A stretch of 64,000 bases of DNA from Candidatus Uhrbacteria bacterium (GCA_016187515.1 JACPJN010000008.1:4525-68524); one strand, 5' to 3'; counted from the first letter of the stretch, positions 2,999 through 41,268 are shown. Made by a program: numbers and translations. Notes: generated by a model from the sequence alone, not told the origin.

Positions 2999-3059
2999 CT
3001 GTTGCCGATGGAGTAGTTTGACTCCGGGATTGGTCGGAAAATGAAACCACCACCGCAGT

Positions 3060-7599: not shown

Positions 7600-7617
7600 G
7601 TGATACAATAGTGGACT

Positions 7618-28292: not shown

Positions 28293-28364
28293 TCCGGGGT
28301 GGCGCAGCGGTAGCGCAGCTCCCTGTTAAGGAGTTGGTCGTGGGTTCGAATCCCACCCCCGGAG
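28293..28364 (+). tRNA. tRNA-Asn (anticodon GTT)
   Basis: Manual cloverleaf: acceptor TCCGGGG/CCCCGGA, D arm GCGC-AGCGGTA-GCGC, anticodon arm GCTCC-CTGTTAA-GGAGT, T arm GTGGG-TTCGAAT-CCCAC, discriminator G. 72 nt. Confidence 0.85.
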
Positions 28365-28510
28365 CCTGAAACTTACTATGTTCCATGTATATATCATCCA
28401 AAATCTTACTCGTGGTACGCGTTATGTGGGTAGTGCCGAGGATGAGGAATCCCACTCTCGGAGGCATAGTGAGAATTAAATTTCAATATTCTTCACTCGA
28501 CCCCCAAGCC

Positions 28511-28557
28511 CAACCGGGCTGATTTTTGTTTTTGAGGTGGTAGAGTGGGGGAATATG
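28511..28557 (+). promoter_or_regulatory. conserved box: small terminator hairpin (AGCCCAACCGGGCT) + TTGATT-17nt-TAGAGT promoter-like spacing, ending GGGGGAATATG (probable leaderless start). Copies at 29551-29599, 29841-29913, 31165-31213; variant at 28753-28809
   Basis: Four to five near-identical copies. Each precedes either an S element or a cassette gene ATG. Confidence 0.4.
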
Positions 28558-28580
28558 TTTGAAATACAAAACAAAGTGCA

Positions 28581-28752
28581 TTCTGCAATTCTGCGGAATC
28601 GCAGACCAAGAGGTGGGGAGGTGGGGGTCAACTCAATATCACCACCGCATCCCCCAAATGTCATCCCCGAGCGGCATCGGGGATCCAGTCAATTTCCCCT
28701 CTCCGACCGAGGTCGGAGGGATTAAGGCCTGCCTGCGCAGGCAGGGGTGGTT
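28581..28752 (+). repeat. S element copy 1: ~170-nt GC-rich structured repeat with four predicted hairpins
   Basis: TCTGCGGAATCGCAGA, TCCCCGAGCGGCATCGGGGA, CTCCGACCGAGGTCGGAG, GCCTGCCTGCGCAGGCAGG. About 90-95% identical to 29621-29820 and 30891-31089. Confidence 0.7.
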
Positions 28753-28806
28753 TTACTGCTCAAAGAGGGTTTACTTCAATGCTAAAAAGTGGTAGGATGG
28801 GGGAAT

Positions 28807-29415
28807 ATGAATCAGGAGGAAATTAAAAAGTTCTTGGAGTCATTTCAATCAAGGCAAGACAGGACTATCGTGATTGTTGATTATGGAAATGTAGAAAAGT
28901 GGAAAAATAGCTTAGGTTGGAAAGTTGGTATTAAGCAGTTGGGTAATCTTGTAAAACACTTTTCCAGCGGCAAGCAATTTTTACGTAGATTCTACTACGG
29001 GTCAGATTATGGGAAGAATGAGCGATCAACTTTGCGGTCCGAGTGGTCACGCTCGGCTACCGATCGCGCAAAGATGAACCGTTTTGAGGTGGTGACGAAA
29101 CGCGTCAAATGTATGCATAGCCAATCCAGCAAATATGGCTTTGAAAAGAAATGCGACTTAGATGTGGAGATGACCGTTGATCTTATCAAGGAGCGTGATA
29201 ATTATGACACGATTATTATCTTTTCAGGTGACGGAGACCTAATGTATGCAATTCGATATTTACGCGACATGTATGACAAGAAGTGTATTGTGTTTGGAGC
29301 CCGCGGACATATTGGGAGAGAGGTATTTGATGCGAAAGTTGAGGGGTTTGTAAATAATATTTTGTTTGCTGATGACTTTGAATATCGCCTTAATGACGCA
29401 CGATTTCGATGCTAA
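28807..29415 (+). CDS. NYN-domain (LabA-like, PIN-fold) putative RNase; cassette gene 1
   Basis: IVIVDYGNV ... CDLDVEMTVD ... IIIFSGDGDLMYA acidic motifs of NYN/LabA domains. Start taken at the ATG of the conserved box (ORF-track GTG at 28789 is in frame). Confidence 0.65.
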   Translation: MNQEEIKKFLESFQSRQDRTIVIVDYGNVEKWKNSLGWKVGIKQLGNLVKHFSSGKQFLRRFYYGSDYGKNERSTLRSEWSRSATDRAKMNRFEVVTKRVKCMHSQSSKYGFEKKCDLDVEMTVDLIKERDNYDTIIIFSGDGDLMYAIRYLRDMYDKKCIVFGARGHIGREVFDAKVEGFVNNILFADDFEYRLNDARFRC

Positions 29416-29620
29416 AAATCAAAAACCCGCCCAAATAGGCGGATTTTGATCAAAATGGGGTAAGCCCAAAGCTTACATTAATAATGTATCAAGCAAGCGC
29501 TGATTTGTCAATAGTTTTATCCACATGCGGTTTTTGGTTGAAAATCAGGCCATTCGGGCTTGAGTTTTTGTTTTTGAGGTGGTAGAGTGGGGGAATATGG
29601 CAATGCACAATTGAACACTC

Positions 29621-29855
29621 GGTCTGCGATTCGCGCGAATCGCAGACCGAGAGGTGGGGAGGTGCGGGTCAACTCAATATCACCACCGCATCCCCCAAAT
29701 GTCATCCCCGAGCGGCATCGGGGATCCAGTCAATTTCCCCTCTCCGACCGAGGTCGGAGGGATTAAGGCCTGCCCGCCAATCGCCTGACGGCTCAAGCCG
29801 GATGGCAGGCGGGGGTGGTTGCCAACCGCCCGCCCCAAGCCCCAATCGGGCTTGA
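29621..29855 (+). repeat. S element copy 2 (with an extra 3' extension carrying a GGTTGCCAACC hairpin and a terminator-like AGCCCCAATCGGGCT + T-run)
   Basis: Aligns with copies 1 and 3. An indel in the GCCTGCC..GGCAGG arm. Confidence 0.7.
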
Positions 29856-29910
29856 TTTTTTGTTTTTCAAGGGTTTACTTCAATGCTAAAAGGTGGTAGA
29901 GTGGGGGAAT

Positions 29911-30627
29911 ATGAATGAGGAGGAAAAAATAAGAGAGATGGCCATCGAGTTTGCGAAGCGAAATAAAAAGCGTATCGCAAAAGTACTGACTGATCCAAAG
30001 GTGTATGCGCCGGATCCTAATCCGATATCGGTGTTTATGGCTGGTTCTCCCGGCGCGGGGAAAACGGAATTGTCAAAAAACCTGATTGATCTTTTGGAAC
30101 GGGAACGAGAGCGCCGCGTCATTCGTATTGATGGCGATGAAGTCCGTCCGCTTATCCCCGGATATACCGGGGTAAATTCAAACTTATTTCATGGCGCTAT
30201 ATCTCTTATCGTTGAAAAAATGCAGGATTTGGCGTTGCATCAAGGTCAAACGTTTATATTGGACGGAACCATGGCAAATACTAATAAAGCAGTTGATAAT
30301 GTGCAGAGGTCGCTCGATAAGAATCGCACGGTTATAGTGTTTTATGTTTACCAACGACCCGAAGTCGCTTGGCAGTTTACACAAGCTCGCGAAGCGAAAG
30401 AAGGAAGGAATATACCCAAGTCGGCATTTATTGAACAATTCTTTGGTGCAAAGGATACCGTGCGCCGCGTTCATGAATTATTTCCAAGGAACGTAATGAC
30501 GTTTCTCGTAAAAAAGGATTTCAAAAATCGGACAGTTGAACATGTTAAGCTTGAGCATTCCGGTGCCGCGCTTGACACATATATCGGGGAGACGTATACT
30601 AAAGATGAACTTGAGCAACACTTATGA
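29911..30627 (+). CDS. zeta-toxin-like P-loop kinase (AAA/Zeta_toxin family); cassette gene 2
   Basis: Walker A MAGSPGAGKTEL, Walker B-like FILDGT, and overall similarity to zeta toxin / UDP-GlcNAc kinases. Confidence 0.6.
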   Translation: MNEEEKIREMAIEFAKRNKKRIAKVLTDPKVYAPDPNPISVFMAGSPGAGKTELSKNLIDLLERERERRVIRIDGDEVRPLIPGYTGVNSNLFHGAISLIVEKMQDLALHQGQTFILDGTMANTNKAVDNVQRSLDKNRTVIVFYVYQRPEVAWQFTQAREAKEGRNIPKSAFIEQFFGAKDTVRRVHELFPRNVMTFLVKKDFKNRTVEHVKLEHSGAALDTYIGETYTKDELEQHL

Positions 30628-30806
30628 AATTATTCAATATTTTTAAAAAACCAACTGAAGCCAAGCGTTCAGGGGGTTTTTCCGATTTCTTTTTGCATGC
30701 AAACGAAGAAGAAAAACGCAGAGTTATTGAAGAGGCCGCGCGGCGGGCCAACGAGGATCAACGCCGTCTGGTTGAACAATACGAAGCCCAAAAGAAAACC
30801 GCCTAA
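30624..30806 (+). CDS. small charged protein (60 aa) translationally coupled (ATGA overlap) to the zeta-like kinase; possible cognate antitoxin/partner
   Basis: Overlapping stop/start. Highly charged, helical sequence EEEKRRVIEEAARRANEDQRRLVEQYEAQKK. Confidence 0.35.
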   Translation: MKLFNIFKKPTEAKRSGGFSDFFLHANEEEKRRVIEEAARRANEDQRRLVEQYEAQKKTA

Positions 30807-30821
30807 CCCGGGCGGTTTTTT
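30795..30821 (+). terminator. rho-independent terminator (ACCGCC-TAACCCG-GGCGGT + TTTTTT)
   Basis: Stem-loop plus T-run; contains the stop codon of the small ORF. Confidence 0.6.
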
Positions 30822-30890
30822 AGTACATCATAGAAACAGCCATGCTCACAGCTCACAAATCACCAAGCTCACAAAGGGCTTGATTTTTTC

Positions 30891-31089
30891 TATTCTGCGA
30901 TTCTGCGGAATCGCAGACCAAGAGGTGGGGAGGTGCGGGTCAACTCAATGTCATCACCGCGCCCCCCAATGTCATCCCCGACCTGATCGGGGATCCAGTC
31001 AATTTCCCCTCTCCGACCGAGGTCGGAGGGATTAAGACCTGCCCGCCAATCGCCTGACGGCTCAAGCCGGATGGCAGGCGGGGGTGGTT
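30891..31089 (+). repeat. S element copy 3, followed by a half copy of the family-1 palindromic element (31111-31150) and the conserved box
   Basis: Aligns with copies 1-2. A frame-breaking difference relative to copy 1 shows it is non-coding. Confidence 0.7.
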
Positions 31090-31210
31090 GCAAACAATCC
31101 GCCAATCAATTCCTCCCCTTAAGGTAAGGGGAGGCGAGGAGGGGTTATGCTTCCGTCTCAATCCCAATCGGAGTTGATTTTTTGTTTTTGAGGTGGTAGG
31201 ATAGGGGAAT

Positions 31211-31915
31211 ATGGAGGACACAAATCAAACTACAAACAAGGCCTTTACAATCCATGATCTGCCTTTTGAGGAGCGTCCGCGAGAGCGACTGGCGCAACTT
31301 GGTGAACAAGCGCTTTCAGCACAGGAATTGTTGCAGATTATTCTTGGCCGAGGCGTGGCCGGAGAATCAGTCGCGGTAACTTCCCAAAAGTTAATTTCAC
31401 GCTTTGGCAGTCTTCCAAAACTATCCGAAGCAAGTGTTGAAGAATTATCGCAGATAAAAGGCATTGGTCTTGCGAAAGCCGCTCAAATTAAAGCCGCGTT
31501 TGAAATCGGGCGGCGGGTTTCCACGCAGACCGCGCCTTACAAAAGCAAAGAGCTGAATGATCCTGAAAAAGTATTTCGGCTGATAAAAAGCAAACTCAAG
31601 GATTATCACAAAGAGCATTTTTACATTATTCCCATCAATAGTAGGAATTGGTCGGTGGCGGAAGTATCCATTGGCACACTTAACGCCAGCTTAGTGCATC
31701 CCCGCGAGGCATTTTCGCAAGCGATAAAGGCGAACGCCGCCTCGGTAATTTTCGCGCACAACCACCCGTCCGGAGATCCTGAACCTTCCGAAGACGACCT
31801 TGCAATCACAAAACGACTGGTTGAGGCGGGAAAACTGCTAGGAATTGAAGTGTTGGATCACCTTGTTGTCGTTCAAAATGGATTTTTTAGTTTCAAGGAG
31901 AAAGGCCTGATTTAG
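31211..31915 (+). CDS. radC: RadC-like JAB/MPN domain protein (UPF0758); cassette gene 3
   Basis: HhH region (GIGLAKAAQIKAAFEIGRR) and JAMM-like motif SVIFAHNHPSGDPEPSEDDLAITKRL. Confidence 0.75.
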   Translation: MEDTNQTTNKAFTIHDLPFEERPRERLAQLGEQALSAQELLQIILGRGVAGESVAVTSQKLISRFGSLPKLSEASVEELSQIKGIGLAKAAQIKAAFEIGRRVSTQTAPYKSKELNDPEKVFRLIKSKLKDYHKEHFYIIPINSRNWSVAEVSIGTLNASLVHPREAFSQAIKANAASVIFAHNHPSGDPEPSEDDLAITKRLVEAGKLLGIEVLDHLVVVQNGFFSFKEKGLI

Positions 31916-32052
31916 TTATACACAGCCGGAGTTTGACAGAATTCAGGATGTACATTATTATGTACATATCATCATTTTAAAAATGATGCGGGATAAAACC
32001 CTGTAAAAATGTTTCTCGCAGTACGTAACTGCAGTTAACAAACGGAAACGCT

Positions 32053-32424
32053 ATGAATACTAAGACCACCATATCCATATCCGAGGCAAGGAAAAATATT
32101 TTTGACATCGCAGATGATGTTCAAAAACCAAATAATTATTACACACTAACCGAAAACGGACGGCCTAAGGCAGTCATTCTTTCGGCTGAAGAATTTGAGT
32201 CATGGCAGGAAACTCTTGAGGTAATGCGCGATTTTCCGGATTTGGATAAGGACGTAAAGGAAACGGATCGTGCGGTTGCAAGCGGTGAATGCAAGAAATG
32301 GGCGACTCTTGATGATATTCTTGCCAAAGAAGGATATATTGTGGCGGACCGGCCTAAACAAAAATATGGAGTATCAACTAAGGTTCAAATCAAGCGCGGA
32401 AAGAGAGTTAGAAAAAATAGATAG
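32053..32424 (+). CDS. Phd/YefM-family type II antitoxin
   Basis: N-terminus TISISEARKNIFDIADDV..YTLTENGRPKAVILSAEEFESWQETLEV is typical of YefM/Phd. Confidence 0.65.
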   Translation: MNTKTTISISEARKNIFDIADDVQKPNNYYTLTENGRPKAVILSAEEFESWQETLEVMRDFPDLDKDVKETDRAVASGECKKWATLDDILAKEGYIVADRPKQKYGVSTKVQIKRGKRVRKNR

Positions 32425-32617
32425 TCGTTATAAACCCCGCATCCTTGAGGCAATCGTCAGCATTAGGCAGGATCCCTATATTGGCAAGAAATTAGAGGGG
32501 GATAGAAAAGGAGAATGGTCATATCGCGTATGGCCATATCGTATTATTTATCGCATTTACAAACACGAATTGTTGATAATCATCATCCGCATCGGGCACC
32601 GGCAGGGGGTGTATTAA
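32366..32617 (+). CDS. RelE/ParE-family type II toxin (overlaps the antitoxin 3' end in another frame)
   Basis: C-terminal WSYRVWPYRIIYRIYKHELLIIIIRIGHRQGVY matches RelE/ParE. Start taken at the internal ATG 32366 of the 32270 ORF. Confidence 0.6.
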   Translation: MEYQLRFKSSAERELEKIDSRYKPRILEAIVSIRQDPYIGKKLEGDRKGEWSYRVWPYRIIYRIYKHELLIIIIRIGHRQGVY

Positions 32618-32620
32618 AAT

Positions 32621-35023
32621 ATGACACAATATAAAAATCTGGAAGAAAAAATTGGTGCATACCTGGACAGCAATGAAAAACAGACTGTCAATTTTAAGGC
32701 CAGTGATTGGAGTGTTGTGTATGGTAATAAAATTAAACAGCATAAGGTTGTAAATAAAGTTACAGGAGATGAGGAATTTGTACGAATGTATTTGGTTTCA
32801 AAATTAGTGAACGAATTAGGGTATAAAGATGAAAATATTGAACTCGAAAAAACTTACCAAGCAGGACGACCCAAAACTATAAAGCCTAGGATTGACGTTA
32901 TTGTAAAAGATTCAAAAGGCAATCCTTTCTTTTTTATAGAGATTAAAGCTCCTGAAGAATTTGAAGCGGGTAAAAGTTTGATTGAAGATCAACTCTTCGG
33001 GTTGGCGGCGTTGGAGGAGGGAAAGTACGGTACGAATATAAAATATTTAGTTTACTTTTCAGTTGACGTCAATGATGTTGGTGCAATTAGAGATAAGTTA
33101 ATTGTGATTGATTACCAAAAATACCGTACATATGAGGTATGGGAAAAAGATGGTTTTCTGTCAGTAGCGGATGAATTGCCCGCGCGATACGAAATGGCAC
33201 AGAAAGAACCCTATATAAAAGGTGGCAAGAAGGATTTACTAAAAACTTTTGATAAAACTGATTTGAATTCCTTACGTGCAAACTTGCACAATGTACTATG
33301 GGGTGGTGGCGGTACAGATGATAATGACGTATTCGCCTATTTGGTAAATATAGTATTGGCCAAGATTCAAGATGAAGGTGAAAAAGCAGATGGTGAAAAA
33401 TATGATTTTCAGATCTTTACCTATGAAAAACAAGGGGGTGAAAAGTTTGAAAGCGATGAAGAGCTTTTCGAGAGAATTAATGGACTATATAGGCGAGCAC
33501 TCAAACAAAGACTGTATATAACCGATGAGGCGAAGTTAAAAAAGAGTTTTGTTATTGATGAAAACAAATTTTCTTTGAACAAATTAAAATATGCGGTTGG
33601 TGCATTAGAAAAATATTCTTTTGTTGATGGAAAAAATAATTTTGATGGCAAAGATATTTTGGGCGACTTTTTTGAGGGTATTATTCGTGAGGGGTTTAAA
33701 CAGACAAAGGGTCAATTTTTTACGCATATCAATGTGGTCCGGTTCATGCTTTGGGGTCTGCAGCTTGATAAGCTCGCCATTGAAAGGGTAAATAAGGATG
33801 TTGAACTGCCGTATCTTATTGATCCAAGTGCAGGCAGTGGCACATTTCTTATTGAATACATGAAATTTATTACTGACAATCTCAAGCGGAGATTTAGGAA
33901 TCAACTTGCGAAAAAACGAGATGTCGAGGATAAATTTCATCAGTGGTTTTTACCAGACCATCGTGAGAATAAATGGGCAGAAAAATTTATCTACGGTGTA
34001 GAGATAAATTTTAATCTCGGAACTGCTACTAAGGTGAACATGATCCTGCATGGTGACGGTTCCACCAATGTTTTTGTCAAGGATGGTCTTTTGCCATTTC
34101 GATTTTATGATAAGGAGACGGCACCGAATTTTCTTAAGCAATACGAGGAAGAAAAGACGTATTTTGATAAGGAGGTAAATGCGCAATTTGATGTAGTCAT
34201 TAGCAATCCACCCTTTAGTGTTGATTTGGATAATGAAACAAAAAAGAGTGTGAAGAAGGAGTTTATCTTTGGTGATAAAAAGAACTCGGAAAATTTGTTT
34301 ATAGAAAGGTGGTATCAATTACTGCGTGAAAATGGCCGACTAGGAGTTGTTTTGCCCGAAAGCGTGTTTGACACCACGGAAAACAAATATATCCGCCTGT
34401 TCATCTATAAATATTTCAAAGTAAAAGCAGTCGTGAGTTTGCCCCAGCTTACCTTTGAGCCATTTACTTCCACTAAAACCAGCCTGCTTTTCGCCCAAAA
34501 GAAAACCAAAGCAGAAATAGAAGAATGGAATAAACTCTGGAGCAAATACTCAAACGAATGGAGCGCGCTCAAAACCCGATGTGAAAATCTACTTGCTGTA
34601 TACCTTGAAGACAAAGACAGAAAAAAACTGCCCTCGATTAAGGATCTGAAAGAAGCTGAAGAAAAGCAAATTCTCGCGCGAATGCTCAAGGATTATCTTG
34701 AAGAAGACGACAAGAAGCTTTCTGCTAAGGCGCTGGTAGAAAAGTATCAAGACGAGCTCAAAGAGCTTTGCAAATACGATAATGACACCAAGGACGCATT
34801 TGGCTTTGTAAATACTTGGTGGGTATTTGGCGAAGTGGCAAAAGAGCTCAATTACAAAATCTTTATGGCGGAAGTGGAAAATGTGGGCTACAAGCGCACC
34901 AAGCGCGGCGAAAAACCGATGTCAAACGAACTATATCGCACAAACAGCAAGGGTGAGATTTTGATTGATGACGGCGAAACCAGAACCGCGCTGGATTATA
35001 TGAGAAAAATTGAGTGGGAGTAA
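32621..35023 (+). CDS. restriction-modification enzyme: N-terminal PD-(D/E)xK nuclease-like domain (HsdR_N-like, ..RIDVIVKD..FFFIEIK..) fused to a gamma-class N6-adenine DNA methyltransferase
   Basis: MTase motif I IDPSAGSGTFL and motif IV VISNPPF. N-terminal D..EIK nuclease motif. Followed by a specificity-subunit gene, giving a Type IIB/IIG- or Type I-like architecture without a separate HsdR. Confidence 0.7.
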   Translation: MTQYKNLEEKIGAYLDSNEKQTVNFKASDWSVVYGNKIKQHKVVNKVTGDEEFVRMYLVSKLVNELGYKDENIELEKTYQAGRPKTIKPRIDVIVKDSKGNPFFFIEIKAPEEFEAGKSLIEDQLFGLAALEEGKYGTNIKYLVYFSVDVNDVGAIRDKLIVIDYQKYRTYEVWEKDGFLSVADELPARYEMAQKEPYIKGGKKDLLKTFDKTDLNSLRANLHNVLWGGGGTDDNDVFAYLVNIVLAKIQDEGEKADGEKYDFQIFTYEKQGGEKFESDEELFERINGLYRRALKQRLYITDEAKLKKSFVIDENKFSLNKLKYAVGALEKYSFVDGKNNFDGKDILGDFFEGIIREGFKQTKGQFFTHINVVRFMLWGLQLDKLAIERVNKDVELPYLIDPSAGSGTFLIEYMKFITDNLKRRFRNQLAKKRDVEDKFHQWFLPDHRENKWAEKFIYGVEINFNLGTATKVNMILHGDGSTNVFVKDGLLPFRFYDKETAPNFLKQYEEEKTYFDKEVNAQFDVVISNPPFSVDLDNETKKSVKKEFIFGDKKNSENLFIERWYQLLRENGRLGVVLPESVFDTTENKYIRLFIYKYFKVKAVVSLPQLTFEPFTSTKTSLLFAQKKTKAEIEEWNKLWSKYSNEWSALKTRCENLLAVYLEDKDRKKLPSIKDLKEAEEKQILARMLKDYLEEDDKKLSAKALVEKYQDELKELCKYDNDTKDAFGFVNTWWVFGEVAKELNYKIFMAEVENVGYKRTKRGEKPMSNELYRTNSKGEILIDDGETRTALDYMRKIEWE

Positions 35024-35966
35024 ATCTATGTTTAAGCTTTGGAGTGAGCAAAATAATGAGGCGAAACAATTACTGAGTCCCAACCTTGATTTAAGGAGTT
35101 GGGACGATCTTTCAAATGAAGAAAAGGAAAAGATGTGGAATTTCCTTAAAGAATGGTTTAATCGCGAGGATGACCCGCGAGTTTTACTCGCGATTATTCA
35201 TTTAAATGAAGTGCATAAATTTAGGTCGTATGCGAGGGCGACGTTAGAGCATCCTTCTCCGAGGAGTTCCTCTGCGGATTTTAAGAATATATTTTTTAAT
35301 GAGAGCCGCCATGTTGTATTAGAATGCTTATCCTGCTTTTGCAAATCTGTTCTCGACGAACGCCGGCGTGATAGCGGGAGAATTTATCGACATGATTATG
35401 ATTCAGATGAAGAATACATGGAGGCATTGACCAGATGGCGATTTAACGAATTTGATAAATTCACAGAGAGAATCAATGATGTCTTTGAACATTTCAGTAT
35501 TAATTTGATTCTTACTCGAAGCGGATTTATTGATAGACAGGATCCGAAAGTAGTGCAGGAAATTTATGTACCAGTTTTAAATTTTCTTTCCTTGCCGAAA
35601 TGGAGAGATGTTAACAGAGACCTCAGTGATGCCTTCAAGGAATATCAAATAAAGACCGCGCAGAGTTATAGTAATTGCATCACGCATGCGGTCTCAGGCG
35701 TGCAGGCTTTTTTGCAGATTTTGGTGCATGAGCAAACAGGCGGCGAATATGGTATTAGCAACCTTATAAAACAAGCGCAAGAAAAAGGTCTCATTCCGGA
35801 GGATAAATTTTCCAATGCCATTTTTAAAAACGTAGAAACAATTTTGATGGGTGAGAGAGGGAAAACTGGAGATGCTCATCCAAAGCAAGAATATGCGAAT
35901 GAAAAGAACGCTCGTTTGGTCTTAAATTTGATTATGATATTCATCCAGCACTGTATTCAGAAATAA
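35010..35966 (+). CDS. hypothetical 318-aa protein embedded between the MTase and S genes; candidate accessory defence gene
   Basis: 14-nt overlap with the MTase stop; the S gene starts 3 nt after its stop (tight operon). No recognisable motif. Confidence 0.4.
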   Translation: MSGSKSMFKLWSEQNNEAKQLLSPNLDLRSWDDLSNEEKEKMWNFLKEWFNREDDPRVLLAIIHLNEVHKFRSYARATLEHPSPRSSSADFKNIFFNESRHVVLECLSCFCKSVLDERRRDSGRIYRHDYDSDEEYMEALTRWRFNEFDKFTERINDVFEHFSINLILTRSGFIDRQDPKVVQEIYVPVLNFLSLPKWRDVNRDLSDAFKEYQIKTAQSYSNCITHAVSGVQAFLQILVHEQTGGEYGISNLIKQAQEKGLIPEDKFSNAIFKNVETILMGERGKTGDAHPKQEYANEKNARLVLNLIMIFIQHCIQK

Positions 35967-35968
35967 CT

Positions 35969-37426
35969 ATGTCACTAAAACAATTTACAACTGACTTTCG
36001 GGAATTAGCTCAAGATAGTTTTTTGAGAAGTGACGAGAAATACCATGTCTTTTTAAATTCATCAGACTGGAATTTATTCGGTAACAAAGACAAAGATTTG
36101 GTAGCACTGAGAGACATTTTGATTGATGACTACCAAAATTTTAAATATGACGAGGGCGAGGAGTACAAAGGAATCCCGACAGGACAAACATATTTGGACG
36201 AAGACGGTTATATCAAAAGTTTCGATTTAGTAACGGCCGAAGATCATCCTGGGAGGTTGAAATATAGAGTTTCAAATGACAATATTCTTATTTCAAGCTT
36301 GAGATTGGCAAAATCTCCCGCTTTGTATTTTGAAAAAGAATATTTGGCTGGTTATGTTTTTTCAAACGGCTTTTATATCTATAAAGTCAAAGAGGGATGG
36401 AACAAGAAATTTCTTTTGTATATTTTACGGACAAAACGATTAAAAAGTATTTTGGATAATAACATCTATAGGGGCATTGGAATTTCTGCATACAAAGATG
36501 ATGATTTAAAGAAAATAAAAATTCCTCTAGTTTCAAAATCTACCCAAGACAAAATCGTTGCACGAATTGAGCCAATTGAGAAGAGGATTAAAGAGCTCAA
36601 AAATCAGATCACGCCGCCGCAGGAGGTTATCAATGAAGTTTTTGCACGAGAGTTTAAGTTTGATTTAAAGAAGTTTGAGGAACTAAAGAATATCAAGAAT
36701 TATTATCTTGAGCTGTCTAAATTTGCGGACAATAGAGATATTCGGCAAAGCGTTAAATTTCACAGAGAAGCAGGGGCATTTGTGATAGATCAGTCGAAAA
36801 AAGTTACCAACAAAAAAATAAAGCATTTTTTGGCGGAGCCGATCGTGCTTGGTAAAGGCGTTTCGCCTTCAAATTATGACGAGAATGGTGACTACTTCTA
36901 TGTTTCAATGGCGAATATCAAAAACTGGAAATTCGAAAGCGAAGATTCAAAATTAGTTTCAAACGAATATTCAAAAAAAAATCAGAACAAAACAGTTGCA
37001 AAAAACGATATTTTAATCGCCCGTTCCGGCGAGGGAACTATAGGGAAAGTCGCGCTAATTGACGATGAAGATTTGAAGGGAATTTTTGCCGATTTTACAA
37101 TGCGAGTTAGATTGCAAAATTATGCCCCTTTGTTTGCTTATTATTATTTTAGAACTGAATATTTCCAGTATTTAGTCGAGGTGAATAAAAAAGGACTTGG
37201 AAACAATACCAACATTTTCCCGAGCCAGATTCAGGAATTTCCGATGATTGATGTTTCTCTCAAAAACCAGCAAAAAATTGTGGCCGAAATCAAGACGGAG
37301 CTGGACGCGCAGGAAGAAATGAACCGAAAAATTGAAACCGAGCGAAATAAAATAGATGAAATCATAGAAAAGCTGATCCAGCATGCGAGATATCAACCCA
37401 CACCAGAACGGTTTTACAGCCCTTGA
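35969..37426 (+). CDS. hsdS: restriction system specificity (S) subunit with two target-recognition domains
   Basis: Two variable regions separated and followed by conserved coiled-coil repeats (IKELKNQI.., IVAEIKTELDAQEEMNRKIETERNKIDEIIEKLI) typical of HsdS. Confidence 0.7.
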   Translation: MSLKQFTTDFRELAQDSFLRSDEKYHVFLNSSDWNLFGNKDKDLVALRDILIDDYQNFKYDEGEEYKGIPTGQTYLDEDGYIKSFDLVTAEDHPGRLKYRVSNDNILISSLRLAKSPALYFEKEYLAGYVFSNGFYIYKVKEGWNKKFLLYILRTKRLKSILDNNIYRGIGISAYKDDDLKKIKIPLVSKSTQDKIVARIEPIEKRIKELKNQITPPQEVINEVFAREFKFDLKKFEELKNIKNYYLELSKFADNRDIRQSVKFHREAGAFVIDQSKKVTNKKIKHFLAEPIVLGKGVSPSNYDENGDYFYVSMANIKNWKFESEDSKLVSNEYSKKNQNKTVAKNDILIARSGEGTIGKVALIDDEDLKGIFADFTMRVRLQNYAPLFAYYYFRTEYFQYLVEVNKKGLGNNTNIFPSQIQEFPMIDVSLKNQQKIVAEIKTELDAQEEMNRKIETERNKIDEIIEKLIQHARYQPTPERFYSP

Positions 37427-37465
37427 CTTTGTGTAGTTAATCAGTATAATGATTAGACAATTGCT

Positions 37466-38359
37466 ATGTCAGATCCATTTACAATTCGTATATTTGTTCC
37501 GGAGGGCGATCCGGAAGGGATTCGTATTATTGATCGCCTTAATTCGACAGGTACTTTTTTTGCATTTCCAAGAGCAAAATGGGCGCAAATGCGCAATCAT
37601 GAAAAACTTAATCAAGCCGGAATTTATATTTTAAACGGTTATGCAAATCCGGACGATGAATTGCCGACTATTTATGTTGGTCAAGCAGATGTAGTTAAGA
37701 ATAGAATTGAGCAGCATACGCGGAATAAAGATTTTTGGGACAAAGGAGTGGTGTTTGTTTCTTCAAACATGAATGTGACATACGCAAAGTGGCTTGAGTA
37801 TGCCCTAGTTAAGCAAGCATCGGAGGCTGGACGGAGTATACTTGAAAATGGTAATAATCCGCAGGAGCCCAACATTTCTGAATCGGAAAAAGCGGACATG
37901 CAAGTTTTTCTAAAGGAAATCTATCAGACATTACCGCTCGTTGGTCTGAGTGCATTTGAGATACCTAAGACAGTTGCGAAGCCGGAGACAGTGCGCCAAG
38001 AACATGCCAGCGATAGAGATACGATTGTGGTTCCGGCTCAAGAGGATGGATTTAAGCGGGTATTCCTCGGAGAAAATGCGTGGTGGTCTGTTCGCATATC
38101 CGGCGGCATGCTTGATAAGATTCGATATATCGCAGCATATCAAGTCGCACCAATAAAAGCCATTACACATATTGCTCAAGTGAATCGTATTGAACCGTAT
38201 GGTGAAGAGGGAAAATACAAATTAATCTTTACAGAGCCCGCAAGGCGTTTGGATAATCCAATTCCATTTGGCAATGCGCCACAGGGGATGATGCAAGGTC
38301 CAAAATACACGAATTTTGAAAAATTGAAGAAGGCAAAACAATTAACGGATCTTTTTTAA
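37466..38359 (+). CDS. GIY-YIG nuclease-family protein with an uncharacterised C-terminal domain
   Basis: GIYILNG..TIYVGQA..VKNRIEQH matches the GIY / YIG / catalytic Arg-Glu pattern. Co-oriented 39 nt after the S subunit gene. Confidence 0.55.
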   Translation: MSDPFTIRIFVPEGDPEGIRIIDRLNSTGTFFAFPRAKWAQMRNHEKLNQAGIYILNGYANPDDELPTIYVGQADVVKNRIEQHTRNKDFWDKGVVFVSSNMNVTYAKWLEYALVKQASEAGRSILENGNNPQEPNISESEKADMQVFLKEIYQTLPLVGLSAFEIPKTVAKPETVRQEHASDRDTIVVPAQEDGFKRVFLGENAWWSVRISGGMLDKIRYIAAYQVAPIKAITHIAQVNRIEPYGEEGKYKLIFTEPARRLDNPIPFGNAPQGMMQGPKYTNFEKLKKAKQLTDLF

Positions 38360-38385
38360 GTGTGTAGTGAATTTAACCCCGCACA

Positions 38386-38557
38386 CTCATCCTTACAAAC
38401 TCCAGTATTTAAGGATGAAAGTGGTCATACAGATTTTTGCACTGGATAGAGGGCCTTGCGCCGGATTCCGTGGCCTGCCCCCACACCAATTTTAGAAATA
38501 TTGGTGTGGGGGCAGGCCGCGAGGCATTTGTGCTTATATATTTTTTCCGTGGATGAT
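38386..38557 (+). repeat. R2 element copy 1 (~170 nt: CCTTAAAT..ATTTAAGG hairpin, then a 20-bp perfect stem GCCTGCCCCCACACCAAT-TTTAGAAAT-ATTGGTGTGGGGGCAGGC, then a T-run)
   Basis: Direct repeat of 39769-39939 (~90% identical). A partial third copy of its first arm at 38703-38740, followed by a partial S element at 38744-38790. Confidence 0.6.
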
Positions 38558-38915
38558 CATGTGAAATCTCTCCCACCCCCTCTAACTCCCCCTCGGGCAG
38601 GGGGAGAAATTTTATTGGGCAGGAGGGGAAAGTGATAACCGAATACTCGCCAAAAGATTTTAAAAATTTTTAATCCCACACCCCAAACTCCCAACCCCAA
38701 ACCATCCTTAAATTCTCAAGTATTTAAGGATAAAAAATCTCCATTCTGCGATTCCCTCCTACGGCGGACAGGCGCGCGAATCGCAGAATGCCGCAGTGGA
38801 CAGGCACACGTTAAGCGGGGTAGGCAGGAATCCAAAACGCGTCACCATTGGCGCGTTTGTGCATATACTTGACATTTTCCTTCATTTATGAAACAATGTC
38901 TTCAGGAGGAAAACA

Positions 38916-39623
38916 ATGGAAAATCGTTCATTTTCATTTGATACATACCAGGCCACACATCCAAAGACCGATGCGGTGTGGAAAGCACTTTGCGCCGGCC
39001 CGCTTCGTGCGGCAATTCAAGCCACGTTGAAGCTGTTCGTCGAAGATGCTTGTCGGTTTTTTGTCATCCATGCGGGGCAAGTACAGACCCTATCGCATGA
39101 TCAGCGCATTGAATTGTACTACCTTCATTACATTAGCCCTTTGTGTTCGCCGGGAAGCCTTCCAGATACCAAACCCCGCGAGGTATTCTCACGGGTACTC
39201 ATTGCCGCGATTACTGAATTCGTGGATTTGGAATCCGGACGTACATTCCCCGGCGCCAAGAGTCGCAAAGTTACCTTAGGCGAAGTCCATGAAACAAGTT
39301 TCGGGGGTGATGCCTCGGGTGAGAATGGTATAAGGATTGTGGATGCGGAAATTGAATTACTGCGGCATGTGTGGGATGAACTCTGCCAGCTAAAGGAGGT
39401 ATCGGATCTTGAGGATCGGACCGCAGGGGCGCCGGTTCTGAATTTTCCGTCGTCGTTGGATAGCGAATTCTGCGCGGAGGAGTTTTCCAGCGTGTGTATG
39501 GGTTCGTTCCTGCGTGTCCTTGTGGACAATATTCTCCACCTGTATGATTATTTCGGTGATCCGCAGTACGTGCGAGAAATGGCGGAGCAAGCGGCGCGCG
39601 AGGAAGCCAGATCTGGTAACTAG
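38916..39623 (+). CDS. hypothetical protein (235 aa), GC-rich, flanked by R2 direct repeats
   Basis: Strong RBS GGAGGAAAACA before the ATG. No recognisable motif. Confidence 0.4.
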   Translation: MENRSFSFDTYQATHPKTDAVWKALCAGPLRAAIQATLKLFVEDACRFFVIHAGQVQTLSHDQRIELYYLHYISPLCSPGSLPDTKPREVFSRVLIAAITEFVDLESGRTFPGAKSRKVTLGEVHETSFGGDASGENGIRIVDAEIELLRHVWDELCQLKEVSDLEDRTAGAPVLNFPSSLDSEFCAEEFSSVCMGSFLRVLVDNILHLYDYFGDPQYVREMAEQAAREEARSGN

Positions 39624-39768
39624 CCTATAAGGAGGGGTGCTCGACATTGCGCCGCACGACCCGGCATTTTGCCGTGGTCTTTTTTTGTAAAATGACCCAG
39701 AATTTCTTGACACCACCCCTCGCCGGGCGGGGGAGTGGGCGGATGTTCCACCCCCCCCCCAACACCAA

Positions 39769-39939
39769 CTCATCCTTAAATTCTCAAGTATTTAAGGATG
39801 AAAGTGGTCATCAGATTTTTACATTGTATAGACGGCCTTGCGCCGGATTCCGTGGCAAGCCCCCACACCAATTTTAGAAATATTGGTGTGGGGACAGGCC
39901 GCGAGGCAGTTGTGCCTATACATTTTTTCCGTGGATGAT
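39769..39939 (+). repeat. R2 element copy 2, preceded by a C10 homopolymer (39751-39760)
   Basis: Aligns with 38386-38557. Confidence 0.6.
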
Positions 39940-40016
39940 TAGGATGGCATATAGTCCCGCGTACGACACTTTGTCTCGCGCGCTTGTTGGTATTTGATGG
40001 CGATGGTATACTATAG

Positions 40017-40529
40017 GTGTATATGGTAAAAAATCCCAAAATTAACGAGAAAAAGTACCGCAATGCCGTGCTTTTTTTCGCGAATAAGATTCGCAATGGT
40101 ACACTGGGCAAACTGAAGCTGATGAAGCTTTTGTATTATCTTGATTTTGATTTTTTTGAGAAGTATGGCCGGTCGGTGACTGGAGACGAATATTTGCGTT
40201 TTGAAAATGGGCCGGTACCACGGATGGCCGAGAAGACATTAAAGCGGATGCGGGGCAAGGAAATAAAAATTGTGAACCGCAAGATGCAAAAAGGATATAA
40301 TGATCAGCAGCACATTGAGCCGCTTATCACATTTGATCCAAGTTCTTTTTCACGAGAAGAAATTTTGATGATGGAAGAAATTGCTGATAAGTGGGAGAGG
40401 TTTACCGGAACGGAAATGAAAAGTGCGAGTCATGGTGAAGCGCCATGGATCGCCACAAAGCCGAACGATGTTATTGACTATAATCTTTCGTATTACCGCA
40501 ATAAATATGCCGAGATGGAACGGCTTTAG
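40017..40529 (+). CDS. Panacea-domain (DUF4065, SocA/PanA-like) putative antitoxin
   Basis: KLKLMKLLYYLDFDFFEKYGRSVTGDEYLRFENGPVPRM matches the DUF4065 core (KLQKLLYF....G.pl..d.f.aw.GPV). Confidence 0.6.
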   Translation: MYMVKNPKINEKKYRNAVLFFANKIRNGTLGKLKLMKLLYYLDFDFFEKYGRSVTGDEYLRFENGPVPRMAEKTLKRMRGKEIKIVNRKMQKGYNDQQHIEPLITFDPSSFSREEILMMEEIADKWERFTGTEMKSASHGEAPWIATKPNDVIDYNLSYYRNKYAEMERL

Positions 40530-40535
40530 TGTGGT

Positions 40536-40871
40536 ATGGAAATTTCTCGGCACGATGCTATTGAAAAAGATTTTCGTGCGTTAAGACGTTCTGCCGCGCC
40601 GCAAGAATCGCTTGAGGCATGGGAACGCCTTTTTTGTTTAAAGGGGTTACGGGAAACGCCGGCAATTGACGCGTTCCCCGGGTTTGGCGGGCGGAAAATT
40701 TTCAAAGGGCGAGTGGTGCCGCTTAAAGAAAATGTGGGCAAGTCAAAAGGGTATAGGGTTATTTTTGAGATGGTTCATGAAAGTCATTGTATCATTTTGG
40801 TTTTTTCGCGACATGGCGTGTACCATACTGAAACGGAGCTAGTTGCGCTAATTAAAGAACGCCTTCATTAA
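40536..40871 (+). CDS. putative RelE/ParE-fold toxin partner of the Panacea antitoxin
   Basis: C-terminal KSKGYRVIFEMVHESHCIILVFSRHGVYH resembles the RelE/ParE/HigB C-terminal strand motif. 7-nt intergenic gap. Confidence 0.45.
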   Translation: MEISRHDAIEKDFRALRRSAAPQESLEAWERLFCLKGLRETPAIDAFPGFGGRKIFKGRVVPLKENVGKSKGYRVIFEMVHESHCIILVFSRHGVYHTETELVALIKERLH

Positions 40872-41009
40872 AAGGGCGCTTGGGAGTGTTTACGGGAACT
40901 TGGTCAACGGGCAGGGGGAGAAATTTTAATGGGCAGGCGCTAGCCATCCTTCGACCGACGGTTGCTGTGGATAAGCAGATGTTGTACAATGCCACAATAA
41001 AAAATAAAT

Positions 41010-41201
41010 GTGGATAGCTTTAATATGCACGATCTTTCCTGCGCGACCTGCGGCTCGCTTGCCGAGGGGTTTAAGTGCGCCGCGTGCGGAATTGAACAGG
41101 ACGAGTTTGAGGCCGGGCATTTGTGCGGCGACGAGCACCTGATGCCGAAATGCTCGATCTGCAGCGAGGCCGAAACCGAATGCAATTGCGATAGTTTATA
41201 G
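41010..41201 (+). CDS. small Cys-rich protein (63 aa, 9 Cys: CxxC, CxxC, CxxC, CNC) - zinc-ribbon-like
   Basis: Cys spacing read directly from the translation. Followed by a strong terminator. Confidence 0.4.
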   Translation: MDSFNMHDLSCATCGSLAEGFKCAACGIEQDEFEAGHLCGDEHLMPKCSICSEAETECNCDSL

Positions 41202-41206
41202 GGCAT

Positions 41207-41243
41207 AAAAACATATCCCCCTTATCGGGGGATATGTGTTTTT
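41207..41243 (+). terminator. rho-independent terminator (ACATATCCCCC-TTAT-CGGGGGATATGT + TTTTTAA)
   Basis: Perfect 11-bp stem plus T-run. Confidence 0.7.
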
Positions 41244-41268
41244 AATTTGTATGCTATAATACGCATAT

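Follow-up and report, generated by a model that had tools for sequence, protein, structure and literature searches.

Two adjacent genes on the forward strand of a 64,000-nt stretch of DNA (the window), from a metagenome-assembled genome (MAG) of Candidatus Uhrbacteria bacterium (Patescibacteria/Parcubacteria group), probably form a type II toxin–antitoxin (TA) module of the PanA–PanT kind. The two genes would be co-transcribed, and a RelE/HigB-2-type RNase encoded by the second open reading frame (ORF2) would be neutralised through binding by the product of the first (ORF1), a stand-alone Panacea protein. The original prediction had proposed a Panacea-domain (DUF4065) antitoxin paired with a RelE/ParE-fold toxin candidate at the edge of a genomic island. 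Its central reading is supported by a Panacea family match (PF13274) to ORF1, by the modelled fold of ORF2, by a profile link from the ORF2 family to solved RelE-superfamily toxins and by linkage of the two genes in all 56 genomes in which it could be tested. With a domain score of 67.4 bits, 377 clusters of ORF2 homologs and 56/56 recurrence, the pair is far beyond chance. Positions are whole-window coordinates; loci are labelled L001, L005 and so on, and proteins P0133, P0138 and P0157.

Both reading frames are present where the original prediction placed them, except that the start of ORF1 is adjusted, and the peptides it quoted occur in their translations (KLMKLLYYLDFDFFEKYGRSVTGDEYLRFENGPVP within ORF1; GYRVIFEM and CIILVFSRHGVY within ORF2). 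A mechanical gene call gives ORF1 as 40017..40529 on the plus strand, 170 aa from a GTG. The ATG at 40023 is the most likely start, because an NCBI protein of 168 aa (P0157, named ‘SocA family protein [Candidatus Uhrbacteria bacterium]’) is 100% identical to ORF1, because the closest relative (L005) begins at the equivalent ATG and lacks the upstream GTG, and because genes called independently on a Logan contig encode 168 aa and then 111 aa. ORF1 and ORF2 share a reading frame and are separated by the TAG stop and 6 nt. The GC content is 41.6% for panA and 45.8% for the toxin gene.

A Panacea protein and its RelE-like partner

ORF1 matches PF13274 (SocA_Panacea) at 67.4 bits (E 2.7e-18; profile positions 1-112 of 113), well over the curated cut-off of 25.7 bits, which bears out the DUF4065 core proposed for it. 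A second family, phrog_1281 of PHROGs, also matches (E 6e-20). Because the NCBIfam SocA_antitoxin equivalog (NF047745) scores just 14.5 bits, far under its cut-off of 190, ORF1 is classed on its sequence as a Panacea protein and not as a SocA orthologue. Pfam and NCBIfam scans gave no further domain in ORF1, and specifically no DNA-binding domain of the helix-turn-helix (HTH), ribbon-helix-helix (RHH), AbrB or Phd type. The AlphaFold2 model, for which 36 homologs were used, reaches a mean predicted local distance difference test score (pLDDT) of 72; residues 5-136 are mostly confident, and a loop (57-64) and residues 137-168 fall below 50. Neither phmmer nor Foldseek returned a meaningful relative of ORF1 in the PDB, so the model informs little past these confidence levels. 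Residues 131-168 are among the most conserved of the protein, with block conservation of 0.74-0.96 and many invariant positions.

ORF2 has no match in Pfam, NCBIfam or PADLOC and nothing significant in PHROGs. Its homologs comprise 377 clusters that are 66-92% identical to it; none is annotated, and those with a named organism are from Patescibacteria. The ParE_toxin profile, which had been proposed as a check, is silent on ORF2 itself, so the link to known toxins needed structure prediction and a widened profile. The AlphaFold2 model, based on a 42-sequence alignment, is confident (pLDDT 91; predicted template modelling score 0.85), and its topology is beta-alpha-alpha-beta-beta-beta-beta-alpha (strands at 2-5, 44-46, 55-60, 73-81 and 84-92; helices at 9-15, 22-40 and 99-110). 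As modelled, this is the characteristic fold of the RelE/ParE superfamily. In a Foldseek search of the PDB, the sole credible top matches are RelE-superfamily toxins: S. pneumoniae HigB (6af4; template modelling (TM) score normalised to the query 0.62, E 3e-3, probability 1.00), HigB-2 (5jaa; 0.54), YoeB (6l8e; 0.53) and YafQ (9lew; 0.51), with BrnT (3u97) at 0.41. The RelE fold originally proposed for the 111-aa partner is thus what the model and its best matches indicate.

Sequence profiles lead to the same toxins. PDB sequences yielded nothing relevant to ORF2 by phmmer or with a narrow family profile (A1), and a profile search of 1.84 billion cluster representatives returned only 36 relatives (clusters at 50% identity). 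Six of 20 remote relatives have sub-threshold matches to ParE_toxin, RelE, ParE-like, Gp49 or YafQ families. Widening the family by these remote relatives (alignment A3) was needed to reach solved structures: in the whole PDB, the A3 profile picks up V. cholerae HigB-2 (5ja8/5ja9; E 1.1e-4) as well as E. coli RelE (4fxe; E 0.012), and aligning A3 to E. coli RelE with hhalign yields a probability of 94.3% (E 1e-7). Both reference sequences used, RelE and YoeB, agree exactly with PDB chains. In the RelE alignment, K57 of ORF2 is placed on K52, R59 on K54, K69 on R56 and G72-Y73-R74 on G59-Y60-R61, so that the ‘GYR’ of the RelE-like strand motif first noticed in ORF2 falls exactly on its RelE counterpart. 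The active site of RelE consists of K52, K54, R61, R81 and Y87. Across A3, K57 is invariant and R59, K69 and R74 are nearly so. By eye, R92, H93 and Y96, within an ‘SRHGxY’ motif, are plausible equivalents of R81 and Y87.

The fold admits a second function, namely that ORF2 is a ParE-type gyrase poison with PanA still as its antitoxin, to which we give a low probability. ParE has the same fold, and ParE2 (7r5a) is among the Foldseek matches, but at rank 22 and with a TM score of 0.38 against 0.51-0.62 for HigB, YoeB, YafQ and HigB-2; the A3 search of the PDB lists HigB-2 and RelE but not a single ParE chain, although matches up to E 10 were admitted. Four remote ORF2 relatives have sub-threshold ParE_toxin or ParE-like matches, which do not discriminate because PF05016 (ParE_toxin) also takes in RelE-type RNases. 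ParE was likewise listed among the CDD matches of putative PanA partners (Kurata et al. 2022, PNAS). The invariant basic residues of ORF2 align with the catalytic lysines and arginines of RelE, and the basic residues of the RNase members are retained. The balance of evidence from alignment and model favours an mRNA interferase. The broad RelE/ParE assignment stands as to fold and leans towards the RelE/HigB-2 branch.

Linkage and divergence of the two genes

A scan of one genome per species across 185,579 species gave 57 loci; for the linkage set, a spurious match and a copy truncated at a contig end were dropped, and two further loci were counted in. The ORF2 homolog is immediately preceded on its own strand by a close homolog of ORF1, a same-clade PanA, in all 56 species-level genomes that could be tested; the intervening gap is 5.5 nt at the median (range -42 to 19). 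Flanking genes vary from locus to locus, and in blastn comparisons the window resembles every other locus only over about 40003/40038-40873, that is, to the two genes and in some cases the -10 region, at 66-89% DNA identity. Identities of PanA and toxin co-diverge (r = 0.53). Linkage extends to remote toxin relatives (28-35% identity), five of six of which, among those sampled, still adjoin a PanA of the same clade. The toxin has decayed beside an intact PanA in three of the 56 loci, through a premature stop (L039), an N-terminal loss (L055) or an internal deletion with frameshift (L059), and the reverse occurs in none. Such polarity is what a harmful ORF2 product would be expected to leave behind, with errors of MAG assembly as another possible source.

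Arrangement and copy number depart from this pattern in a few places. In two remote subclades (P0133 and P0138; L062 2501-3395 and L066 1505-2376), PanA is downstream on the opposite strand, so that the genes stand tail to tail with a 1-nt gap or a 22-nt overlap, and the two genes cannot be co-transcribed there. L008 (3-308, 492-1190), from the same MAG as L007, has a second toxin copy that is cut by the contig end; a different and far more divergent Panacea-like ORF (43 bits to ORF1) follows this copy rather than preceding it. Identities to the window are discordant in L005 (toxin 93%, PanA 81%) and L006 (toxin 89%, PanA 93%), which hints at recombination inside the module or at uneven evolutionary rates.

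Conservation across MAGs of different candidate-phylum names is about 64% for the toxin and 75% for PanA, which is unusually high for a TA pair and could suggest a conserved two-gene module of another kind, in which the RelE-fold protein would lack toxicity and might instead be a regulatory or RNA-binding partner to a Panacea ‘phage-associated’ protein. Ten predicted systems were indeed non-toxic in E. coli (Ernits et al. 2023, PNAS; PMC10440598). This explanation is very improbable here: the basic residues that match the RelE active site are invariant, toxin decay beside an intact PanA is one-sided, and the operational TA criteria of Kurata et al. (2022) agree with the sizes and order of the genes, the shortness of the gap and a distribution that is patchy and tied to islands.

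Proposed mechanism and expression

In the TA module that we favour, an extended -10 promoter would yield one nearly leaderless transcript of both genes, and toxin translation would be coupled to termination of panA across the 6-nt gap. Free ORF2 would bind ribosomes and cleave mRNA in the A site, thereby stopping translation, as its fold and alignment predict; cleavage would use the basic cluster K57, R59, K69 and R74 together with R92, H93 and Y96. ORF1 would most likely neutralise the toxin by direct protein-protein binding, as experiments have demonstrated for other stand-alone PanA proteins (Ernits et al. 2023), and its invariant C-terminal tail (about residues 145-168) could speculatively take part. 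Loss or triggering of PanA would then release the toxin and arrest growth, which would serve either maintenance of the island or abortive-infection defence.

The putative promoter consists of a -35-like TTGTTG (39984-39989), a 17-nt spacer (14 nt plus the TGG of the extended -10) and an extended -10 element, TGGTATACT (40004-40012), which ends 10 nt ahead of the ATG at 40023. Such a distance implies a very short or absent leader. A generic promoter consensus scan did not flag this upstream element, because its -35 fits at only three of six positions. In the window, the start ATGs of two further long ORFs (7618 and 41269) are likewise preceded, at a distance of 8-10 nt, by a motif of the form TGnTAYAMT; its sites are at 7601, 40004 and 41252 in the window and at 3040, 3470 and 4500 in L005, 8-14 nt upstream of starts. 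This recurrence suggests that leaderless or near-leaderless mRNAs may be common in Parcubacteria-group genomes. DNA similarity of the window to L005, L012, L014 and L059 starts at 40003-40005. The extended -10 promoter probably drives both genes. No conserved Shine-Dalgarno sequence is visible before the toxin ATG at the junction across the family and the gap is very short, which together suggest translational coupling of the toxin. No convincing operator-type palindrome occurs at 39940-40022. The first strong terminator 3' of the module is a bidirectional hairpin at the right border of the island (Table 1). Because no terminator lies between the toxin stop and 41211, transcripts may also cover an ORF at 41025-41201. 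This ORF encodes 58 aa, is Cys-rich with several CxxC pairs, has a weak rubredoxin-like match (E 0.07) and is not part of the conserved pair in other loci.

Several observations weigh against a RelE-type RNase held in check by PanA. ORF2 lies under every curated family threshold searched, its Foldseek E-values are modest (3e-3 at best), and hhalign of the narrow A1 profile against YoeB is not significant. The RelE alignment stops short of R81 and Y87, and Y96, one of the residues proposed to stand in for them, varies among remote relatives of the wider family. The low pLDDT of the PanA tail may reflect a shallow alignment only. In 97% of locus pairs the conservation of PanA exceeds that of the toxin, which is atypical of classical type II systems; their usual pattern is an antitoxin less conserved than its toxin. 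Autoregulation is unsupported, since neither a DNA-binding domain nor an operator was found in the sequence. Panacea has been described as probably not autoregulating (PMC10440598).

The invariant, low-confidence C-terminal tail of PanA and its stronger conservation (75% against 64%) also lead to a more far-reaching and rather doubtful reading, in which the pair is a horizontally spread defence element near-exclusive to Patescibacteria and PanA, more than a passive inhibitor, senses a conserved trigger such as a phage or host-derived protein. Once freed by the trigger, the RelE-like RNase would bring about abortive infection in its ultra-small episymbiotic hosts. The Panacea domain has been hypothesised to be a sensor (Ernits et al. 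2023), and the higher conservation of PanA fits that hypothesis without proving it. Very improbable as well is a type VI arrangement like SocAB, in which PanA, as an adaptor, would hand the toxin over to a protease (ClpXP, for instance) to be degraded constantly. In its favour, Pfam names the family after SocA, NCBI calls the identical protein a ‘SocA family protein’, and contact with a host protease through a conserved surface might account for PanA being the more conserved partner. Against it, the SocA equivalog score is far under its cut-off, the partner is RelE-folded and unlike SocB, every PanAT pair tested so far forms the stable complexes typical of type II (PMC8832971) and stand-alone Panacea neutralises directly (PMC10440598).

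Known systems and genomic setting

Pairings of this type have been predicted before and in part demonstrated by experiment. The toxin MqsR, too, adopts a RelE-like fold. MqsR:PanA of Bacillus fungorum has been validated experimentally (Ernits et al. 2023) and, like the pair described here, joins a PanA antitoxin to an RNase toxin (a predicted one in our case). The B. fungorum PanA carries an MqsA-type zinc-binding domain and an HTH, with the zinc-binding domain neutralising, whereas the present PanA is a stand-alone Panacea protein. In the accessible part of Dataset S1 of Kurata et al. (2022), predicted clusters T14, T28 and T59 have HHpred matches to HigB-2, YoeB, ParE or RelE. As listed there, they likewise place a Panacea antitoxin without an N-terminal domain (‘noNTD’) beside a small RelE/ParE-superfamily toxin, in antitoxin-to-toxin order with a gap of a few nt. 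Their hosts are Methanobrevibacter, Taylorella and Haloterrigena, against Uhrbacteria here, the clusters being compared by their listed descriptions only; no Patescibacteria occur among the Dataset S1 entries in that part. The combination is less new than the original prediction implied, since pairing of PanA with a RelE/HigB-2-like toxin is already predicted in that dataset. SocAB of Caulobacter (type VI) has the Panacea/SocA Pfam domain in common with our pair, but ORF1 reaches 14.5 of the 190 bits required by the SocA equivalog, the partner is not SocB and a protease-adaptor mechanism is not indicated.

HigB-2/HigA-2 of V. cholerae and RelE/RelB of E. coli contain the best sequence-profile relatives of ORF2. 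Fold and a K-x-R ... GK ... G-x-R pattern are shared, and ribosome-dependent mRNA cleavage is a predicted common activity. Identity is only about 10-15%, and ORF2 has, relative to RelE, an extra loop of about 8 residues (P62-K69) with an invariant E65-N66. The antitoxins differ as well: Panacea here, HigA (HTH) with HigB-2 and RelB (RHH) with RelE. In higBA the toxin comes first, whereas the antitoxin leads in the present pair.

What is new is an unannotated toxin family that occurs almost only in Patescibacteria-labelled genomes and is tied strictly to one PanA clade. Its near-restriction to genomes so labelled, its high cross-lineage conservation and the stronger conservation of the antitoxin than of the toxin are mildly unexpected. 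A fold and a likely function can now be assigned to at least 377 ‘hypothetical protein’ clusters from Patescibacteria and related metagenomes, and the partner list of Panacea now reaches a RelE/HigB-2-like clade in candidate-phyla-radiation (CPR) bacteria, which the accessible part of the RefSeq-based Panacea survey lacks. The concept of PanA with diverse toxins, ParE/RelE-like ones included, was already established. A compact, strictly linked family with more than 50 natural paired variants could serve as a test case for neutralisation of a RelE-fold toxin by a stand-alone Panacea protein, and it also suits the question of why an antitoxin evolves more slowly than its toxin. Some loci carry other labels: Nanoarchaeota, Pacearchaeota, Aenigmatarchaeota or ‘uncultured archaeon’ (L007/L008, L023, L056, L060). 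Further carriers, including ones labelled Gammaproteobacteria or Thermodesulfovibrionales, are L037, L039, L043, L045, L049 and L055. Copies from L023 (Pacearchaeota) score the same as those from L022 (Patescibacteria), which suggests mis-binning or mislabelling; transfer between CPR and DPANN is another possible source of the odd labels.

The PanA–toxin pair is the last conserved module at the right end of a low-GC island (42.8% GC, against 52.0% and 52.6% in the flanks) that begins directly after a tRNA-Asn gene (28293-28366). The originally proposed position at an island edge is supported by composition, gene content and this tRNA start; recombination signatures do not accompany it, as neither an integrase among the island ORFs nor an att-like copy of the 3' end of tRNA-Asn was found. 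Restriction-modification (R-M), RadC or Fic-type neighbours also occur at L001, L003 and L060. Searches of IMG/VR viral contigs, PLSDB plasmids and GenBank phages turned up no relative.

Table 1. Features of the panA–panT candidate pair, its expression signals and the surrounding island, in window coordinates.
Feature	Position	Strand	Basis or remark
Low-GC island, about 13 kb	28367..41250		Composition, gene content
NYN-domain protein	28789-29415		
Zeta toxin	29893-30627		E 6.5e-42
RadC	31211-31915		
Phd/YefM antitoxin	32053-32424		E 1.7e-14
N6 methylase with Eco57I-like region	32621-35023		
HsdS	35969-37426		
Weak GIY-YIG-like ORF	37466-38359		
ORF without Pfam match	38916-39623		235 aa; 51.6% GC (host-like)
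Putative promoter	39984..40012	+	Sequence reading, motif recurrence
panA, stand-alone Panacea (DUF4065) protein, 168 aa	40023..40529	+	PF13274 match
Spacer TGTGGT, panA stop to toxin start, 6 nt	40530..40535	+	Sequence
panT candidate, RelE/HigB-2-like, 111 aa	40536..40871	+	AlphaFold2 fold, widened profile
Strong bidirectional terminator-like hairpin, 11-bp stem and T-runs	41211..41237		

The island is densely filled with TA and defence genes, and other TA-like genes occur in it besides the pair. No epsilon-type antitoxin was identified for the Zeta toxin; its neighbour at 30697-31035 (112 aa) is without a Pfam match. The Phd/YefM gene is overlapped by a 115-aa ORF (32270-32617) that lies just 5' of the R-M methylase and is a possible toxin partner, so the two may form a second TA module of the island.

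Upstream of panA, a repeat of about 180 nt occurs twice (38375-38557 and 39758-39939; 92% identity over an aligned 128 nt), and its second copy ends 77 nt before panA. The host-like ORF at 38916-39623 sits between the two copies, inside the low-GC island. Each copy contains a 53-nt near-perfect palindrome (CGTGGC..CCCCCACACCAATTTTAGAAATATTGGTGTGGGG..). Rfam returned only spurious, sub-threshold miRNA-hairpin matches on the repeats. In L005, a weakly restriction-endonuclease-like ORF (2436-2876) that lacks the palindrome shows homology to the long repeat in its 3' part, and the window copies are therefore read as gene remnants with a palindromic insertion. The idea of a cassette inserted into a repeat element was given up as a firm proposal, as L005 identifies the long repeat as the remnant of an endonuclease-like gene. 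A separate 30-nt repeat stands beside the first long copy (38594-38623) and again 37 nt after the toxin stop (40908-40937).

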